From Reyranella sp. (GTDB lineage: Bacteria > Pseudomonadota > Alphaproteobacteria > Reyranellales > Reyranellaceae): a stretch of DNA of 64,000 nt. Below are positions 41,908 to 50,443 of this stretch, piece by piece. Location: the NCBI GenBank assembly GCA_021732285.1, contig JAKFVH010000073.1:2862-66861 (forward strand). The letters are read 5' to 3'. The position numbers were made by a program, and so were the translations under genes. Positions within the stretch are counted from its first letter, which is position 1. Each line of letters opens with the position of its first letter. Under the pieces are notes generated by a model that searched no databases, was not told where the DNA came from, and saw only the letters and a program-made list of their open reading frames with translations.

Positions 41908-44900
41908 TTACTCGTCCATCACCGCCGCCGGCAGAAGGATTTCGAAACAGGCGCCACCCTCGGCCCGGTTCCTGGCCGAGATCTCGCCGTCCATCTCCTC
42001 GACGATGCGCCGGCAGATGCGCAGGCCGAGGCCAGTGCCCTTGCCGCGCGCCTTGGTGGTGACGAAGGCCACGAACAGGCGCGACAGCACGTCGGGCGCG
42101 ATGCCCGGTCCTGAATCCTCGACCGCGATACGCACCAGCGGCCGGCCGCCTCGCTCGACGGCGCTGGCGGCGACGGAGATGGTGCTGCCGCCGGCATCGC
42201 GCGCATTGTTGATCAGGTTGACCAGCACCTGCTCGAGCCGGGCGACATGGCCCATGACGGGAGGCAGGTCGTCGGGCAGCGACGCCGACAGTGTCGTCTG
42301 CTGCTGTCGCAGGCCATGGCCCGTGAGATCGACCGCGCCCCGCACGGCGTCGGCGATCCGGAACGGCACGGGGTCGTCGCCGGCGCTGGCGCCGCGCACG
42401 AAGGCCCTGAGGTCGCCGACGATGCGGCTGGCACGCTCGACCTGAAGGGTGATGCGGCCGAGCTTGGTCGCCATGAAGTCCGGATCGGCGGTAGTGCCGC
42501 GCTTGGTGGCCTCGGACAGCTCGTCGCTGGCGGTATGGCAAGCGAGGTCGATCACCTGCAACGGCTGGCTGAGCTCGTGGGCCACCGTCGCCGCCATTTC
42601 GCCGACAGTGGTGAGACGCTCGGCGGCGTACAAGGCATGCTCGGCCTCGCGCCGCTCGGTCTCGTCGACACCCAGGAAGGCGATCTGGCGCACCACCCCC
42701 GACGAATCGAGGATCGGGCTCGCCGTCAGGCTGAACAGCCGATGCCGGCCCGATGCGTCGATGAGTGAGCGCGTATACCTCGCCGGTTCCGTATGCTCGC
42801 CGGCCAGCCATTGCCGATACACACTCATCTCGAGAGCCGTCCCGACCGTCTCGGTCACCGGCCGGCCGACCAGGTCTTCCTCAGTCACACCATGGATGTT
42901 CAAGACCTCGCGATTGACCACGATGACCCTGAGATCGCGGTCAGTCAGTATCAGCCCGGCGCCGATCGATCCGACGATCGAACGCAGGTTGCCCATCTCC
43001 TCGGCGAGCCGGCGCTCGAGCTGCACACGCGCCTCGATGTCGCGCACGATGGCGACGATGAGCGACTTGCCGTCCTCCCCCCACACTTTTCGGCAGTTTG
43101 CCTCGACGTGTCTCTTCTCGCCGCCGGCCGTGAGGACGCGATAGTGTAACTGAACGAGCTGCGGCTGGCCGCCGGCGAGGCTGCCCCTGATGGTCGCGCG
43201 CACGCTCCCCCTGTCTTCGCCGACGATATGATCGAACGCATCGGCGCCGACCATCTGCAAGCCCCAGAGATCAGTCGCGGCGGCATTGGCGAAGACGATG
43301 CGGTTGCTGCGCGGGTCGACCTTGAGCACCACGTCGCCCATTGAATCGAGCAGCGCCTGGTACTCGGCGCGGGCATGCTCGACTTCAGCCATCTGCCGTT
43401 CCAGACGTGCCGTGAGCTCGACGCGCTCCGTCACGTCGCGCATCACGCCGACCGCCGCCACGGTCTGGCCAGGGCCACCCGGCGGCCGGCGATAGCGGCA
43501 TTCCATGTGCTTGATCGAGCCGTCAGCCCGCTTCATGCGCAGATTGATATGGCGTACCGCTTCGTCCGTCGACCGCAGGTGAGCGCGGGCGGCCGCGCTG
43601 GCGCGCTCCAGGTCCTCGGCGTCCAGGAAATCGGCAAAGCGCTTGCCGACAACGTTTGCGGCCGGCATTTCCAGCAAGTCGATGGCGGCGGCGCTGGCGA
43701 AGGTGAAGACGCCCTTTGCATCGAGCGCGTAGACCATGTCGGAGAGCGAATCGACCAGCGCCTGATAGTCGGCCCGGGCACGCTCGATCTCGAGCTCCTG
43801 GTTCTTCAGGTCGGTGACGTCGACCCGAAGGCCGACCGTGCCACCGCTCGGTGTCTCTTTCTCGAGCCACTCGATCCAACGATTTTTCGTCGTCTTGCGA
43901 AGGTGTCGACTTTCCTTGGAGCGAAAACGCCTGATCCACGACTCCGGCCCCTCGACCACCTCGGCTTCGGTAGCCTCGCCGTTGCGCACACGCGCATAAC
44001 ACAATTCGGCGTAAGTCATGCCAATGGCGCCGGGCCGGGCGAGGCCGGGCGTGATGGCGGCCGCGGCCTTGTTGAACATCACCAACCGCTCGTCCTTGTC
44101 GTAGAGCACGACGCCCGCCGGCAGCGCATCGATGGTTTCCTGGAGTAGGTCGCGCGCGTGCTCGATCTCCATCTCGTGGTTCTTGAGATCGGTGACGTCG
44201 ACCCTGAGACCGACCGTCCGGCCGGACGGCGTGAGCTTCTCCGACCATTCGAACCAGCGTTCGCCGACCGCCTGGCGCATGATCTGCCGGCCCTTGCTGC
44301 GGAAACGCGCGATCCATTCCTCGGCGGTGTTCTCGAGCGGCGCGCCGAACTCTCCCGACAGCTTGGCGGTCTCGCGCGCCAAGTCCGTGTAGGAAATGCC
44401 GATGATGCCAGGCCGCTTCAGCACCGGCGTCGAGGCCATGGCGGCGGCATTGAACATGACCAGCCGTTCGTTCTGGTCGTAGACCACGACGCCTGCCGAC
44501 AGGCTGTCGATCGTCTCCTGCAGGAGATCGCGCGCCTCTCCGGCGGCCTGCCATTGCCGCTGGTGCTCCATCGAGGCGCGGCCGACCAGCAGGATCAGCA
44601 CCAGGCCGGCGGAAACGAAGCCCGCCGTGCTGAGCGTCAACACCAGGAGCGCCCAACCGTAGTCGTCGACCAGCTTGCCGATCAGCACATCCACGCTCTG
44701 CGCGTCCGCGGCACTCGCCGCGTTGAACCGGCCGAGCAGGACGATGGCCTTGCCCAGCGTCGCCCGGTCGAGCAGGCGGCTCGGCGGGTTGAACGCCTTG
44801 ATCTCGCCCACGAGCAAGGCATGCATCGCCGCGGCCTCGGCGCAGATCACCGGCTGGCGCGCGATGTCGGATGACACTCCGCCCGCCTGGCCACAAGCCT

Positions 44901-45219
44901 CGGTCAGCGCAGCCTCGAACCGCGCCCACGCCTTGCGCAAGGATGCTTCGGCGTCGGCAGCCGGAAGCTGGTCGTAGGTCATGAGATGGACGGAATGCAT
45001 CAACTGCCGCGTGCTCTGGTCGAGCGCCAGCAGATCGGCCGTCCTGTGTCGGGTGTAGCCCGCCTCCGTGGCACGCAACGACAGCACGATGCTGGCCATG
45101 GAGATCGCGCAGCACAGCAGGCCGACCGCGCCAGCTGCCGTCGCCCAGATGACACCGCGCGTGCCGAGTGCGAGCCTGGCTTGGTCGGGAAAAGAACGTA
45201 TGAGGTCGAAAAGCTGCAT
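41908..45219 (-). CDS. Membrane-bound multi-PAS sensor histidine kinase
   Basis: Two TM segments, about 5 PAS domains, H-box VAHELSQPL, N-box NLINNA, DSGPG, GTGLGL; start uncertain. Confidence 0.93.
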   Translation of the reverse strand: MQLFDLIRSFPDQARLALGTRGVIWATAAGAVGLLCCAISMASIVLSLRATEAGYTRHRTADLLALDQSTRQLMHSVHLMTYDQLPAADAEASLRKAWARFEAALTEACGQAGGVSSDIARQPVICAEAAAMHALLVGEIKAFNPPSRLLDRATLGKAIVLLGRFNAASAADAQSVDVLIGKLVDDYGWALLVLTLSTAGFVSAGLVLILLVGRASMEHQRQWQAAGEARDLLQETIDSLSAGVVVYDQNERLVMFNAAAMASTPVLKRPGIIGISYTDLARETAKLSGEFGAPLENTAEEWIARFRSKGRQIMRQAVGERWFEWSEKLTPSGRTVGLRVDVTDLKNHEMEIEHARDLLQETIDALPAGVVLYDKDERLVMFNKAAAAITPGLARPGAIGMTYAELCYARVRNGEATEAEVVEGPESWIRRFRSKESRHLRKTTKNRWIEWLEKETPSGGTVGLRVDVTDLKNQELEIERARADYQALVDSLSDMVYALDAKGVFTFASAAAIDLLEMPAANVVGKRFADFLDAEDLERASAAARAHLRSTDEAVRHINLRMKRADGSIKHMECRYRRPPGGPGQTVAAVGVMRDVTERVELTARLERQMAEVEHARAEYQALLDSMGDVVLKVDPRSNRIVFANAAATDLWGLQMVGADAFDHIVGEDRGSVRATIRGSLAGGQPQLVQLHYRVLTAGGEKRHVEANCRKVWGEDGKSLIVAIVRDIEARVQLERRLAEEMGNLRSIVGSIGAGLILTDRDLRVIVVNREVLNIHGVTEEDLVGRPVTETVGTALEMSVYRQWLAGEHTEPARYTRSLIDASGRHRLFSLTASPILDSSGVVRQIAFLGVDETERREAEHALYAAERLTTVGEMAATVAHELSQPLQVIDLACHTASDELSEATKRGTTADPDFMATKLGRITLQVERASRIVGDLRAFVRGASAGDDPVPFRIADAVRGAVDLTGHGLRQQQTTLSASLPDDLPPVMGHVARLEQVLVNLINNARDAGGSTISVAASAVERGGRPLVRIAVEDSGPGIAPDVLSRLFVAFVTTKARGKGTGLGLRICRRIVEEMDGEISARNRAEGGACFEILLPAAVMDE

Positions 45220-45614
45220 GCCCCTCGGCCGGGCGATTATTGCCGGACCGCGCAGCCGGACCGTTGACACTATAGAAGCCCCCTGCTCCGGTCGAGAAAC
45301 CGGAGCTACCAACTGTGGTGCACAAAGGGGCAGAGGTCACCCCTTTATGGTTCCGTTGTGGATGCATTGCCATTGCGGTGAAAATAGGTGCCGCCACAAC
45401 CGCCGCCGCGGCCTATATCCGCACGAATAGGGTGCGCGAGCGGCTGTTCCGCTGTGACGACTATCGCTCTCGGCCTTCTCCACACCCGCCGATTGACTCG
45501 CCCAAGCCGGGGTGAAACGATTTCCAGGACAAGACTTCGCTCCGGCCGAGTTCCGTAGCGACCACGTCCGGAGCCTTTGTGCGCAAACGACCGCGCCAGC
45601 AGGAGGACGTTGTC

Positions 45615-47687
45615 ATGGCCGACATCAAATCCGAGACCATCACTGGAGGCAGACCAGGCAGCGGCGCGCATCGCGTGGTGGCGCTGTGCGGGCCGTATCT
45701 CTCGGGCAAGACCAGCCTGCTCGAGAGCATCCTCTACGCCACGGGGGCCATCGGCCGGCGCGGCTCGACGCGCGCAGGCACCTCCATCGGCGACGGTGCC
45801 GCCGAGGCGCGCAAGCGCGGCATGGGCACCGAGATCAACGTCGCCTCGGTCGACTATCTCGGCGATCAATGGACCTTCCTCGACGTCCCGGGCTCGATCG
45901 AGTTCCAGCACGATGCCTTTGCGGCGTTGGCCGTGAGCGACGCGGCCGTGCTGGTCTGCGAACCCTCGCCCGAGCGCGTCGTGGCGCTGACGCCGCTCTT
46001 GAAGTTCATCGAAGACCACCACATCCCCCACGTCATCTTCATCAACAAGATCGATTCCGCCGAGGTCCGCGTGCGCGACATGCTGTCGGCGCTGCAGTCG
46101 ATCTCGTCGCGCAAGCTGCTGCTACGCCAGGTGCCGATCCGCCACACGGCGGCCGACGGCAGCGAGGAGACGGTGGGCTATGTCGACCTCGTGAGCGAGC
46201 GCGCCTACCGCTACAAGTCGAGCGGCGCGTCCGACCTGATCGAGATGCCGGCCGAGATCCTGCCGCGCGAGAGCGAAGCCCGCCGCGAGATGCTGGAGAC
46301 GCTGTCGGAGTTCGACGACCAGCTCCTCGAGCAGCTCATCGAGGACATCGCGCCCGAGAAGTCGCTGATCTACCGCGACCTGCACGACGAGTTCGGCGCC
46401 GACCAGATCTCGCCCGTCTTGCTGGGCGCCGGCGATCGCGAGAACGGCGTGCGCCGGCTGCTCAAGGCGCTGCGCCATGACGCGCCGTTCGTCGCCGAGA
46501 CCGCCAAGCGGCGCGCGCTGCCGTCCAACGGCGTGGCCATGGCCGAATGCTTCAAGGTCCTGCACCAGAGCCATGCCGGCAAGCTGTCGCTCTGCCGAGT
46601 CTGGTCGGGCAGCCTGGTCGAGGGCCAGAGCGTCGGCGGCCAGCGCATCGGCACGCTGCTGAGGCCGTTCGGCCAGCGCCTCGACAAGATCGCCGAGGCC
46701 AAGGCCGGCGAGATCGTGGCGCTGGCCAAGGTCGACGCGTTGTCGGGCGGCCAGTCGCTGGCGGCCGCGGGCATTGTCGCGAGCGCGGACTTCCCCAAGG
46801 CCGACCCGCCGGTGTTCGCGCTGTCGCTCAGGGCCAAGAACCGCAACGACGAGGTCAAGCTCTCGGGCGCCCTGCACAAGATCGTCGAGGAAGACCCGTC
46901 GCTTTCCTTCGAGGCGCGCGGCGAGACCCACGAGCTGCTGATCAAGGGCCAGGGCGAGATGCACCTGAAGGTCGCGGTCGACAAGCTCGCCGGCCGCTAC
47001 AACGTCGCGGTCGACACCGAGACGCCGCGGGTCGCCTACCGCGAGACCATCCAGGGCGGCAGCCAGCAGCATGCCCGCTACAAGCGCCAGACAGGCGGCC
47101 ACGGCCAGTTCGCCGACATCAAGGTCGAGATCAAGCCCTTGGCCCGCGGCTCGGGCTTCCGCTTCGTCGACAAGGTCGTGGGCGGCGTGGTGCCGCGCAA
47201 CTTCATCCCGGCGGTCGAGGAGGGCCTGGTCGACTACCTGAAGGAAGGCCCGCTCGGCCAACCGGTGGTCGACCTCGAGGTCACGCTGTTCGACGGCCAG
47301 TACCACTCCGTCGACAGCTCGGAAATGTCGTTCAAGATGGCCGCGCGCATCGCCATGAGCGAGGCCATGCCCAAGTGCAAGCCGGTGCTGCTGGAGCCCA
47401 TCCTCAAGGTGACGGTGGCCGCGCCCAACGACGCCACGCCGCGCATCCAGCGCCTGATCTCCGGCCGCCGCGGCCAGCTTCTGGGCTACGACGCGCGCGA
47501 GGGCTGGAACGGCTGGGACGAGGTCTCCGCCCTCATGCCCGAGGCCGAGATCGCCGACATGATCGTCGAGATCCGCTCGGTCACCCAGGGTGTGGGCACC
47601 TTCCGCACCGAGTTCGACCATCTGCAGGAGCTGGTCGGGCGCACCGCCGACCGCATCGTCGAGGAAAGCAAGAAGCGGGCGGCCTAG
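45615..47687 (+). CDS. Elongation factor G-like protein (EF-G2 type)
   Basis: Full EF-G domain layout (EEDPS, GEMHL, VAYRETI, KRQTGGHGQF, YHSVDSSEMSF, LLEP) with divergent G motifs; AGGAGG RBS. Confidence 0.93.
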   Translation: MADIKSETITGGRPGSGAHRVVALCGPYLSGKTSLLESILYATGAIGRRGSTRAGTSIGDGAAEARKRGMGTEINVASVDYLGDQWTFLDVPGSIEFQHDAFAALAVSDAAVLVCEPSPERVVALTPLLKFIEDHHIPHVIFINKIDSAEVRVRDMLSALQSISSRKLLLRQVPIRHTAADGSEETVGYVDLVSERAYRYKSSGASDLIEMPAEILPRESEARREMLETLSEFDDQLLEQLIEDIAPEKSLIYRDLHDEFGADQISPVLLGAGDRENGVRRLLKALRHDAPFVAETAKRRALPSNGVAMAECFKVLHQSHAGKLSLCRVWSGSLVEGQSVGGQRIGTLLRPFGQRLDKIAEAKAGEIVALAKVDALSGGQSLAAAGIVASADFPKADPPVFALSLRAKNRNDEVKLSGALHKIVEEDPSLSFEARGETHELLIKGQGEMHLKVAVDKLAGRYNVAVDTETPRVAYRETIQGGSQQHARYKRQTGGHGQFADIKVEIKPLARGSGFRFVDKVVGGVVPRNFIPAVEEGLVDYLKEGPLGQPVVDLEVTLFDGQYHSVDSSEMSFKMAARIAMSEAMPKCKPVLLEPILKVTVAAPNDATPRIQRLISGRRGQLLGYDAREGWNGWDEVSALMPEAEIADMIVEIRSVTQGVGTFRTEFDHLQELVGRTADRIVEESKKRAA

Positions 47688-47795
47688 GATCAGGCTCCCC
47701 TCACAAGGCGGTGAAGCCGCTCCACGGCGGCTTCTCCCGGCTGGCAATCGCCCGCATACTTGTCCGGTGGAATGGTTCCACGGGGGATGGATCTC

Positions 47796-48230
47796 ATGTT
47801 CAACAGAAGGTCCGTGATGGTGGGCGGCCTGGCGATGGCCACCGCACCGTCATTGACCCGCATCGCGCACGCCCAGTCTGGGAAGCCGATGCTGGTGTTC
47901 GTCGGTCACGAACTTTGAGGCGGCTGCAAGATCTGGCGTGCCCAGTCTGAACCTGACTTCAAGAAGTCAGACGCCTTCAGCAAGCTCGACTACCAGGTGG
48001 TCTATCCCGCCAACGCCGACCTCGTGACGGCGGAAGCGAGCTGGCCTGCCGCGGCCAAACCCGTGCGCACCGCCTTCCTCGACAGCGACGAGGGCAAGGC
48101 AAACGGGTCCAAGACGCCGCGCTTCATCCTCTTCCAGGACGGCAACGTCATTCTTGCAGTCACCGGCAATGCCGGCTGGAAGGATCAGATGTGGCCGAAG
48201 CTCGTCGAGGTGACGGGTACCAAGGCCTGA
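47796..48230 (+). CDS. Putative selenoprotein: Tat-exported thioredoxin-fold protein with UxxC motif
   Basis: MFNRRSVMVGGLAMATAPSLTRIAHAQSGKPMLVFVGHEL-U-GGCKIW...TPRFILF...; in-frame TGA at 47916-47918; both sides align with the adjacent paralog; SECIS-like hairpin follows. Confidence 0.78.
47929..47948 (+). promoter_or_regulatory. Candidate bacterial SECIS element
   Basis: AGA-(U)-CUGG-CGUGC-CCAG-UCU; bulged U at +14 and GU at +20/+21 after the UGA. Confidence 0.68.
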
Positions 48231-48235
48231 GAATG

Positions 48236-48360
48236 CTTCCTCCCCAGCTTCGCTGGGGAGGTGGCCCGCAGGGCCGGAGGGGTCATGGACGACAGTACTG
48301 ATGCTCATGACCCCTCCGCCCGCTACGCGGGCACCTCCCCATCGTAAGACGATGGGGAGG
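48236..48360. repeat. CTCCCC/GGGGAG multi-hairpin palindromic repeat
   Basis: Same architecture as 35294-35425, sharing CCTCCCCAGCTTCGCTGGGGAGG and GATGCTCATGACCCCTCCG. Confidence 0.9.
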
Positions 48361-48440
48361 CAAGACTCGCTGCCTTTTCCTCGTTGGCGGCTTGGATCAT
48401 ATTGACCCCGTGGAGCGTTCCACGGGGGAGATGAAGTCGT

Positions 48441-48890
48441 ATGGTCCTGAGACGTTTCTTGATGGCGAGCCTGGCGATGGCCGCTGCGGTGCTGTGCGCA
48501 CCCGTTGTCGACGCGCAAACGCCCGCTGCCAGCCAGGGCGCGAAGGCGCAGTTGATCCTCGTCTGCCACGACCAGTCAGAGGCGTGCAAAACGTGGCACA
48601 GCCAGTGGCAGCCACTGTTCGCCGCCAGCCCCGCTTACAAGATGATCGACATCCAGACGATCAACGCACCCAACGCCAAGGCAATGATGCAGCCCAAGGC
48701 CTGGCCCGCCAATCTGAGCTGGCTGCTCGACACCTTCCTGATGAGCCAGGTAGGCAGATGGGAGGAATACGAAACCCCGCGGTTCTTCCTGCTGCAGAAC
48801 GGCCAGCTCACGGCGAGCACCGCCGGCAACAACGGCTGGCGTGACTATATGTGGCCGACGATCCTCGACATCACGAACACCAAACCCTGA
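48441..48890 (+). CDS. Exported thioredoxin-fold protein with SxxC motif, paralog of 47796-48230
   Basis: RR signal peptide, LILVCHDQ-SEAC-KTW, WPA, TPRFFL.Q.G, GN.GW.D.MWP. Confidence 0.8.
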   Translation: MVLRRFLMASLAMAAAVLCAPVVDAQTPAASQGAKAQLILVCHDQSEACKTWHSQWQPLFAASPAYKMIDIQTINAPNAKAMMQPKAWPANLSWLLDTFLMSQVGRWEEYETPRFFLLQNGQLTASTAGNNGWRDYMWPTILDITNTKP

Positions 48891-48906: not shown

Positions 48907-49419
48907 ATGACGAACGAGCTGTTCCGCAGTCAACTCGCATCCTACGCGTCGGTGCATCGCGACTGGCGCAACAAGGCGACCCACTTCGTCGGTATCCCGA
49001 TCATCGTCTTCTCGCTGCTGCTGATCCTGTCGCTGTGGCGCTTCGAGGTCGGCGACCGGCAATGGACGCTGTCGCTCGCCATCACCATCGTGGCGGTGCT
49101 GGGCTGGATGGCGCTCGATCTCGGCATCGGCATCGTCATGGCCCTGATCATGGCGGTCGCCTGGTACGCCGCCGAGGCCTTCGCCGGCGCGCTGGGCTCG
49201 GCGCAGGCCGTGTGGATCGCCTTCATCGTCCTGTTCGTCGGCGGATGGGTGCTGCAGCTCCTCGGCCATCACTACGAGGGCAAGCGGCCGGCGCTGATGG
49301 ACAATATCTTCCAGGCCTTCATCGGGCCGATGTTCCTGGTTGCCGAAGCCATGGTCGTCATGGGCCAGCGCCGCGATCTTGCCGACGCCATGGGCGAAGG
49401 TGACGTCACGGCGCGGTGA
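48907..49419 (+). CDS. DUF962/Mpo1-like membrane protein
   Basis: Y...H....N...H..GIP, GW..Q..GH..EG.RPA. Confidence 0.88.
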   Translation: MTNELFRSQLASYASVHRDWRNKATHFVGIPIIVFSLLLILSLWRFEVGDRQWTLSLAITIVAVLGWMALDLGIGIVMALIMAVAWYAAEAFAGALGSAQAVWIAFIVLFVGGWVLQLLGHHYEGKRPALMDNIFQAFIGPMFLVAEAMVVMGQRRDLADAMGEGDVTAR

Positions 49420-49486
49420 GCAGGGTTGATTTGCACCCGAGCCGCCGCGACGCCAGATAAGCGCGGGGCGTAGAGGAGTTCTACTC

Positions 49487-50443
49487 ATGTTGATCAAGCG
49501 CAGACGCGGCTGGGAATTGGGCGAAAACCAGGCAACGCCTGAAGGCACCTATTTGCAGCGCCGGTCGCTGGTGAAGGCCATGGGTCTCGGCGCCGCCTCG
49601 CTCGCCCTTCCGGCCATCGCCTCGGCCCAAGACAAGGATCCATCCGCCGCACTTTATCCGGCCAAGCGCAACGACAAGTTCGGCGTGCCCACGCCGATGA
49701 CCGCCGAGAAGCTGGCGACGACCTACAACAACTTCTACGAATTCGGCACCGACAAGAGCATCTGGCGCGATGCCCAGAAGCTCGAGGTGCGTCCCTGGAC
49801 CATCAAGGTCTCGGGCATGGTCGAGAAGCCGTTCGAGATCGGCATCGACGATCTCTTGGCCAAGGTCCAGCTCGAGGAGCGCGTCTATCGCCATCGCTGC
49901 GTCGAGACGTGGTCGATGATCGTGCCGTGGAGCGGCTTTCCGATGCGCTCGCTGGTCGAGCTGTGCAAGCCCACGAGCGGCGCCAAGTTCGTGGTGATGA
50001 AGACGCTCAGCAAGCCCGCGGTGATGCGCGAGCAGCGCGACCCGCTCTATCCCTGGCCCTATACCGAGGGCCTGGCGATGGACGAGGCGATGAACGACCT
50101 CACCTTCATCGCCACCGGCCTCTACGGCAAGCCGATCCACAAGCAGAACGGCGCGCCGCTCAGGCTCGTGGCGCCGTGGAAGTACGGCTTCAAGAACGTG
50201 AAGTCGATCGTCTCAGTCGAGTTCAGCGATAGGCGACCGGTCTCGTTCTGGGAGAAGCTGCAGGCGAGCGAGTACGGCTTCTGGGCCAACGTGAACCCGC
50301 AGGTGGCGCATCCGCGCTGGAGCCAGGCGACCGAGAAGCCGCTGGGCAGCGAACAACGCATCCCCACCCTGCTCTACAACGGCTACGGCGAGTTCGTGGC
50401 CGGGCTTTACGCCGACCGCAAAGCGGAAAAGCTCTTCATGTAA
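49487..50443 (+). CDS. msrP: Protein-methionine-sulfoxide reductase catalytic subunit
   Basis: Tat signal, YNNFYEFG, RCVETWSM, WPYTEGL, PWKYGFK, EYGFWANVNP, HPRWSQA. Confidence 0.96.
   Translation: MLIKRRRGWELGENQATPEGTYLQRRSLVKAMGLGAASLALPAIASAQDKDPSAALYPAKRNDKFGVPTPMTAEKLATTYNNFYEFGTDKSIWRDAQKLEVRPWTIKVSGMVEKPFEIGIDDLLAKVQLEERVYRHRCVETWSMIVPWSGFPMRSLVELCKPTSGAKFVVMKTLSKPAVMREQRDPLYPWPYTEGLAMDEAMNDLTFIATGLYGKPIHKQNGAPLRLVAPWKYGFKNVKSIVSVEFSDRRPVSFWEKLQASEYGFWANVNPQVAHPRWSQATEKPLGSEQRIPTLLYNGYGEFVAGLYADRKAEKLFM

Follow-up and report, generated by a model that had tools for sequence, protein, structure and literature searches.

An in-frame TGA in a small Reyranella gene

A small gene of Reyranella sp. 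carries a TGA inside its reading frame, which raises the question of whether this codon ends translation or is decoded as selenocysteine (Sec), and what kind of protein would result. The gene lies at 47796–48230 (+) of the window, as we call the whole 64,000-nucleotide stretch of DNA analyzed here. A preliminary description of the locus had held that the ATG at 47796 opens a frame of 144 codons with one internal TGA, and the sequence confirms it. The internal TGA (47916–47918, predicted Sec41) is followed by GGC GGC TGC, giving a U-G-G-C motif (47916–47927, +) at the start of predicted helix 1, and the terminal TGA occupies 48228–48230. Over its full 144 codons we predict a selenoprotein gene with a SoxS-like thioredoxin fold. 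As had also been noted, the list of open reading frames holds the tail only (77 aa, 47997–48230), and the neighboring paralog at 48441–48890 can indeed be aligned across the stop, with 36% identity over 120 aa (E = 3e-30).

A TGA in this position could also be a true stop, arising from a pseudogene, a split gene or a sequencing error, or it could be a Trp codon or a site of leaky read-through. This reading draws on the Sec members of the family in public collections, which are called solely as hypothetical fragments of 43–89 aa, and on one database protein, P0001, known from its protein record alone, with W at the Sec position. Against an error stand the contigs of three independent-looking public runs (X2, X15 and X16), which span the TGA without change; X15 and X16 are possibly not independent of the window’s source. 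One further run, on record as RNA, gives contigs over 47573–47881 and 48071–48266 that leave the TGA uncovered, at a depth like that of the flanks. Against a Trp codon stands the use of TGA as terminator: it is the last codon of both the Sec gene and the paralog, so this genome reads TGA as a stop.

Conservation of the codon in the genus and the wider family

The identical TGA recurs across the genus, which argues against a true stop or Trp codon. A 30-nt pattern covering the TGA and the hairpin core described below, built from the recovered family genes, is present in 103 of the 114 genomes of the genus (67 of the 71 of good quality), and the reversed control in none. Two of the listed matches look like chance, and both genomes also hold a standard match. 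Since kin genomes are not independent, these figures are counts and not a test. A search with the read-through protein gave matches in 70 of the 72 genomes of the genus; among 48 other relatives it matched one, weakly.

From 88 loci around part of the matches we collected 131 family genes, the total being at least 131. Their codon at the Sec position is TGA in 77, Ser in 44 and Cys in 10. The motif of the TGA genes is UGGC in 66 and UGPC in eight, with UGIC, UAGC and UAAC in one each, and U-x-x-C is invariant in all 77. The preliminary description had considered that close homologs might all have TGC or TGT and lack the hairpin; this is not so, as homologs retain the TGA. Nor is selection relaxed beyond the codon, as it had also considered. 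Past the hairpin, median pN is 0.205 vs a median pS of 0.522 (57 equal-length orthologs), so this part is coding and constrained, and purifying selection acts on both sides of the TGA, which again speaks against a stop.

Relatives have Cys at the homologous position, as expected neither of a true stop nor of Trp. Examples are P0002, P0042 and the syntenic ortholog of G001 (C-G-F-C), in which the GU loop and the +18:+24 pair of the hairpin are lost, though G001 keeps selA. Cys forms are widespread: at E up to 0.001 the wider family amounts to 509 clusters, and of the best 150 among them 111 have CxxC, four have Ser first and 35 are off pattern, about a dozen of the latter being fragments that begin just past the motif. 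The Sec form was seen solely in this genus among the genomes searched. A profile search of 400 genomes drawn from the phylum, with ten candidates scored per genome, returned a single member of the genus plus four weak hits, none of which has the TGA.

In a tree of 68 rows (large groups thinned) and 116 columns, with 34 of 65 inner branches open and the root unsure, the Ser twins fall into one supported clade (95/97), nested in a group that they share with UGGC genes and that has weak support (82/56); the Cys gene of G001 pairs with a Sec gene (85/88). Given these two placements, changes from Sec to Ser and from Sec to Cys are likely within the family. The family also contains less usual members. 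P0001 possibly reflects a code-4 translation, both redox residues are lost in P0003 and P0004, and P0043 also belongs among the homologs with W or without redox residues. A third member in the host genome, with C-Q-P-C, lies at G000:C205:5774-6154 (-) (L014). Its neighborhood has flanking gene clusters in common with that of a U-G-P-C gene in G048 (L141 vs L150), so a single site may be occupied now by a Sec form, now by a Cys form.

Selenocysteine machinery of the host

The search for selA, selB, selC and selD proposed in the preliminary description found all of them in the host. Contig C160 holds selA, selB and the tRNA-Sec gene (anticodon tca) together, and selD is on contig C51. The cluster on C160 adjoins the 3' portion of a formate dehydrogenase gene: this Sec-containing alpha-subunit gene is split between G000:C197:1-1077 (-) and G000:C160:13363-15462 (-), after which selA, selB and tRNA-Sec follow. 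Across the genus, selA was found in 69 of 72 genomes vs none of eight from the sister family, and the three genomes that miss it are 60–89% complete.

The sel genes, the Cys homologs and the SECIS geometry set out below together count against a stop or Trp codon, a reading that we consider very improbable. From the sequence evidence, the TGA of gene 47796–48230 is very likely recoded as selenocysteine.

A short SECIS-like hairpin follows the TGA

A SECIS-like hairpin lies at 47930–47947 (+), which is +12 to +29 when counted from the first base after the UGA. It has a 2-bp lower stem (+12:+29 and +13:+28), an unpaired bulge at +14, a 4-bp upper stem (+15 to +18 with +27 to +24) and the loop CGUGC. 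The key offsets given in the preliminary description proved correct, with U+14 at 47932, G+20 at 47938 and U+21 at 47939. From +12:+29 inward, the six pairs hold in 74, 75, 77, 77, 77 and 77 of the 77 Sec genes, but the additional outer pair that it had drawn, A+11:U+30, is paired in just 25 of them. Of the SelB determinants it had named, G+20/U+21 stands: 75 of the 77 Sec genes have it, against 3 of the 44 Ser genes and none of the 10 Cys genes. The bulged U+14 lacks such specificity, as it is found in 70 of 77 Sec genes and also in 31 of 44 Ser genes, with G or C at +14 in seven Sec genes. Placing GU at +20/+21 requires the rare codon CGT, which is used for 34 of the 397 arginines at other positions in the same genes.

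Several measures bear on whether the hairpin itself is conserved. Median pS is 0.0 over codons 42–50 vs 0.52 over codons 51–144 (57 orthologs). Pairing reaches 90% for the hairpin vs 12–46% in slid controls. Among 36 distinct sequences, four of seven pairs change on both sides (18 cells), an outcome seen in 0 of 500 shuffles. Covariation is seen in the lower stem; the upper stem is invariant or nearly so, and the W-R-x-Q codons constrain part of its sequence. Eight related UGPC genes account for most of the compensatory changes, which leaves few independent events. Folded alone, 47916–47960 gives -10.9 kcal/mol (z 0.32) and is not unusually stable, and the hairpin from +10 to +31 has a mean of -5.2 kcal/mol, against a bSECIS threshold of -7.5 defined on a stretch that may differ from ours.

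In the numbering of the E. coli fdhF SECIS, the bulged base is U17 and the loop bases are G23/U24. The fdhF-like geometry claimed for the Reyranella gene recurs at the same offsets in the host’s own formate dehydrogenase gene (fdhF/fdnG-type), where U+14 is unpaired and G+20/U+21 lie in the loop; this agreement confirms the geometry inside the genome. The two elements differ in that the formate dehydrogenase hairpin has a 5-bp stem with a GUCU loop, whereas the Reyranella gene has a 4-bp stem with the 5-nt loop CGUGC. The long lower stem of the former is absent from the latter, and the stretches folded give -21 and -5 kcal/mol, respectively. The bacterial SECIS model, as presented in PMC13188914, calls for a loop of 3–9 nt, a stem of at least 4 bp, G in one of the first two loop positions and a spacing of 16–37 nt; the Reyranella hairpin fits in loop size (5 nt), stem (4 bp), G position (second in the loop) and spacing (18 nt).

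A scan of all 149,319 TGA triplets of the host for the hairpin geometry left 52, of which 16 have open frames on both sides and four also have GC3 >= 0.73 on both sides. Two of these four, gene 47796–48230 and the formate dehydrogenase gene, were recovered by construction, and a third is a 15+34-codon stretch on contig C253 without a motif. The fourth, G000:C18:45465-46043 (-), has an in-frame TGA in N-G-C-P-F-U and an identical CGUGC loop at +19 to +23; from its motif we take it to be an AhpD/CMD-like CxxU selenoprotein, a known class.

A predicted thioredoxin fold remotely related to SoxS

The thioredoxin fold suggested in the preliminary description is also predicted by AlphaFold2 (pLDDT 87, pTM 0.77; 65 sequences). 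The model contains a strand at 32–36, a helix at 42–50 with the motif at its start, a strand at 65–69 and extra helices at 72–103, followed by Pro108, strands 109–114 and 117–123 and a closing helix. The T-P-R-F segment (48114–48125, +) takes the predicted position of the thioredoxin cis-proline, ahead of the beta-beta-alpha motif. All 66 orthologs have P108 and 65 of them have T107, directly before strand 109–114. The model and the Foldseek comparison thus predict the features that define a thioredoxin: beta-alpha-beta plus beta-beta-alpha units, the motif at helix 1 and a Pro before strand 3.

Foldseek gave 74 matches at E up to 0.001, and those listed are nearly all thioredoxins at 13–23% identity. 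Among the matches listed, SoxS of Paracoccus pantotrophus has the best target TM-score (0.69) and the lowest rmsd (3.6); its E-values rank 15th and 20th, behind ordinary thioredoxins. We ranked SoxS on Foldseek together with hhalign, where the family profile matched a SoxS-like protein at E = 1.1e-8 (probability 95.6). Two of the four weak phylum hits look SoxS-like, and one of them matches 3d4t at 7e-22. The 65-sequence family profile itself did not match 3d4t at E up to 1. Because the profile fails to find SoxS directly, we regard the protein as SoxS-like in scaffold and not as a member of SoxS. The predicted picture is that of a thioredoxin fold remotely related to periplasmic SoxS. The earlier view of an unrecognized family needs refining, since a remote relative, periplasmic SoxS, can be recognized.

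Like SoxS (PDB 3d4t, 3dml), the Reyranella protein would be an exported small thioredoxin with C/U-x-x-C-x-x-W-x-x-(Q/E)-x-x-P and T-P-x-F. The two differ in sequence (~20% identity), in the stretch from strand 2 to the Pro loop, which is about 20 residues longer in the Reyranella protein, in Sec for Cys and in the absence of sox genes near the Reyranella gene. We recognized no sox genes in the ortholog neighborhoods, only two of 12 genomes have soxB, which was not found in the host (81% complete), and a SoxS-like query had no match in the host genome; on these grounds we rejected a Sox function.

No Pfam or NCBIfam model reached its cut-off on the window protein or the relatives tested. With the NCBIfam 20.0 set, applied to the window protein and three more Sec forms (all four of L081, L085, L220 and L190) and to 45 of the best 150 representatives, none of the tested proteins came near a cut-off. 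Pfam gave weak hits only among the 65 family members; DUF7155, matched weakly in three of them, was discarded at 16.7 bits vs a cut-off of 27. A search of the Atlas with the natural Cys ortholog of G001 returned hypothetical top clusters and then Thioredoxin_2-type ones. By any model tested, the protein is not TlpA, ScsC or a peroxiredoxin.

Known bacterial selenoproteins with a UxxC thioredoxin fold likewise have U-x-x-C at the start of helix 1, a SECIS directly past the UGA and Cys homologs. Unlike them, the Reyranella form has an RR signal peptide, extra helices at 72–103 and a tandem Ser-x-x-Cys twin. The families with UxxC listed in Table 1 of PMC13188914 include Sec-Trx (PF00085), thiol:disulfide interchange (PF13098), DsbG-like (NF041057), SaoT (NF040730), HUIPC (NF047660) and GOS_C (NF045500) proteins.

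Signal peptide and export

Residues 1–26 (47796–47873, +) form a predicted signal peptide with N-R-R-S-V-M and an A-H-A end. RR is present in 66 of 66 UGGC orthologs, and a TATFIND-type pattern in 58 of 66. Pfam TAT_signal scores 12.9 bits on the window protein, below the cut-off of 22.7, and tatC is present in the host. The Tat consensus includes a Phe that the Reyranella signal lacks, and RR also occurs in a neighboring solute-binding protein. As read from these features, the predicted selenoprotein very probably leaves the cytoplasm, and Tat is its probable route, at a lower level of confidence.

The Ser twin and the neighborhood of the gene

The tandem paralog (48441–48890, +) has S-E-A-C for U-G-G-C, with no attacking residue, and its hairpin has decayed; the +12:+29 pair is formed in 0 of 44 Ser paralogs. 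In 43 fetched loci the twin lies 32–255 nt downstream of the Sec gene. It is absent in several species, and G045 retains the Ser twin alone at the site. The twin would be redox-dead or a monothiol trap. A palindromic, REP-like multi-copy repeat, detected with blastn, separates the two paralogs (48237–48362, no strand assigned). It has 316 blastn hits in the genome, 202 of them at least 100 nt long, and is not part of the mechanism. Rfam hits on it were chance matches to miRNA models only and were discarded.

In 19 of the 20 ortholog regions the gene is flanked by fusA2 upstream and msrP downstream, the exception being a second copy in G002; the msrP cluster label also lumps in an Mpo1/DUF962 gene, and MsrP itself corresponds to NCBIfam NF003767. 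This context is found at 0 of 7 distant Sec loci and 0 of 8 CxxC loci. In the window, the EF-G-like gene (fusA2) is directly upstream at 45579–47687, and beyond it, on the opposite strand, lies a large gene labeled from sequence reading as a multi-PAS histidine kinase (41908–45312). Downstream, 48907–50443 holds an Mpo1/DUF962 membrane gene and then msrP without an adjacent msrQ; an msrQ-like gene is on contig C184.

A TTGACA/TATAAT scan called no promoter upstream of the gene. Ortholog conservation points to a promoter-like site at 47732–47760 (+), with TTCTCC, 17 nt and CATACT. The CATAnT-type box is found in 59 of 66 orthologs, and a TT 22–23 nt before it is 97–98% conserved; this TT could also mark the end of the fusA2 terminator. 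Upstream of the gene and of its twin alike there is a conserved TT..17 nt..CATAnT site, which suggests separate promoters. A leader hairpin, GTGGAA...TTCCAC (47767–47787, +), stands directly before a Shine-Dalgarno-like GGGGGA. A similar hairpin precedes the paralog; among the 69 Sec genes that are not UGPC, 40 show the pattern, as do 20 of the 44 Ser paralogs. In L064, L076 and L077 about 7 nt separate the CATAnT box from the ATG and there is no leader hairpin, which suggests leaderless transcripts.

Proposed mechanism and competing explanations

We hypothesize a chain in which SelB would bind the hairpin loop and insert Sec41, and the folded protein would be exported from the cytoplasm. There, the Sec41 selenolate would attack an oxidized cysteine on an envelope protein, be it a disulfide, mixed disulfide, persulfide or sulfenic acid. 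Cys44 would resolve the intermediate, forming an Se-S bond, and a single DsbD-family membrane protein would re-reduce this form. The scheme builds on the TGA, the homolog residues, the machinery and the hairpin as observed and on the fold as predicted, and its later steps are modeled on thioredoxin chemistry, SoxS and the ScsB substrates. By analogy with these systems, we lean towards the whole chain of Sec recoding, export and a U-x-x-C reductase recharged by one DsbD-family protein, at slightly better than even odds.

Each of 12 genomes has one DsbD-family gene. The host protein has 716 aa, with N-terminal, membrane and thioredoxin domains, and adjoins a redoxin gene; we infer that it is ScsB-like. 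Its gene is unlinked to the selenoprotein gene. SoxS reduces false mixed disulfides on SoxYZ (PMC10451225); SoxYZ is an unlikely substrate for the Reyranella protein. In Caulobacter, an ScsB-type DsbD feeds envelope thioredoxin-like proteins (TlpA, PprX, PrxL and ScsC), as described in PMC3322552. The two settings share an alphaproteobacterial envelope and one long DsbD-family protein, in the host beside a redoxin gene, and they differ in that we infer the DsbD link of the Reyranella family.

The main competing explanation keeps the selenoprotein and changes its task to that of an envelope disulfide isomerase, an oxidase, or a scavenger of peroxide or hypochlorite. A Thr before the conserved Pro is a feature of the DsbC/DsbG type. 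With T-P, not I/V-P, before strand 3, an isomerase would also fit, and the periplasm is oxidizing. The 144-aa model, on the other hand, has neither a DsbC-type dimerization domain nor a helical domain of DsbA size, eight distant Sec members have the thioredoxin dipeptide in U-G-P-C, and a monomeric U-x-x-C protein would still need an electron donor; we therefore rate this alternative as unlikely. It is less probable again that the protein is a dedicated partner of the neighboring MsrP, as an electron shuttle or as a cysteine-repair arm for oxidized envelope proteins. The order fusA2, gene, msrP cluster in 19 of 20 ortholog regions and the RR signals on both proteins would fit such a partnership, but the conserved block also contains unrelated metabolic genes, msrP is beside none of the 7 distant Sec or 8 CxxC loci, and the gene and its twin each seem to own a promoter-like site. 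All 12 genomes searched carry an MsrQ-like gene at another site (that of G047 scores 122, below the cut-off of 130), which also led us to reject the idea that the protein replaces MsrQ.

The Sec protein and its Ser twin could instead be a redox sensor or ligand-binding pair and not turnover enzymes. The Ser paralog is kept in 43 loci, alone in G045, and members without any redox residue exist; since P0003 and P0004 lost both, a non-redox role of the fold is possible. The invariance of U-x-x-C in 77 Sec genes and the lack of a twin in several species weigh against such a pair, which we hold to be quite improbable. Beyond the reductase chain that we favor, the Tat-exported Sec-thioredoxin, its redox-dead Ser twin and MsrP might form a selenium-dependent envelope repair module protecting the Reyranella periplasm, a speculative proposal that we think doubtful.

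Novelty and implications

UxxC thioredoxin selenoproteins are a known class, and the class itself will not surprise a specialist; this family is uncatalogued by the Pfam and NCBIfam models and by the descriptions in Table 1 of PMC13188914. It would be added to the roughly 119 prokaryotic selenoprotein families listed in that table. The part of PMC13188914 consulted has no SoxS-like or Tat-exported thioredoxin entry and does not use the words “Tat” or “periplasm”. Reyranella is absent from the main texts of BSepDB (PMC13326102) and deep-Sep (PMC12013277) and from the deep-Sep supplements, as far as these sources were covered. A search of titles and the starts of abstracts, with most subscription journals outside its range, found no description of Reyranella selenoproteins.

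A separate candidate selenoprotein family appeared in nine Planctomycetota-titled records (L174, L175, L179, L188, L189, L193, L225, L254 and L274). Its candidates have ~290–300 aa, a signal peptide, an N-terminal thioredoxin-like domain and U-A-P-C (U-G-P-C in one), and they are homologous on both sides of the TGA (e.g. L188:701-703, +). All five genomes tested for selA have it. None reached an NCBIfam cut-off, and the one member tested passes Pfam Thioredoxin_7. Their shared hairpin core follows by construction from the search pattern.

For Reyranella, a cultivable, aerobic genus, the predicted selenoprotein gene is a near-core gene, yet databases record only hypothetical fragments of it. 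In this family a single small scaffold occurs naturally with Sec, with Cys, with Ser and without the motif, in some cases within one genome, and because the Sec, Cys and Ser versions exist, the advantage of Sec over Cys is directly testable, in an oxidizing compartment. The short, weak SECIS with its natural covariation is useful for defining what SelB requires. On the speculative repair-module reading, the W-R-x-Q codons after CxxC in SoxS-like proteins would offer a ready-made SECIS stem, and this would explain why scaffolds of this kind gain Sec. If the repair module were real, an alphaproteobacterium that lives aerobically in fresh water and soil would be guarding its periplasm with selenium chemistry.
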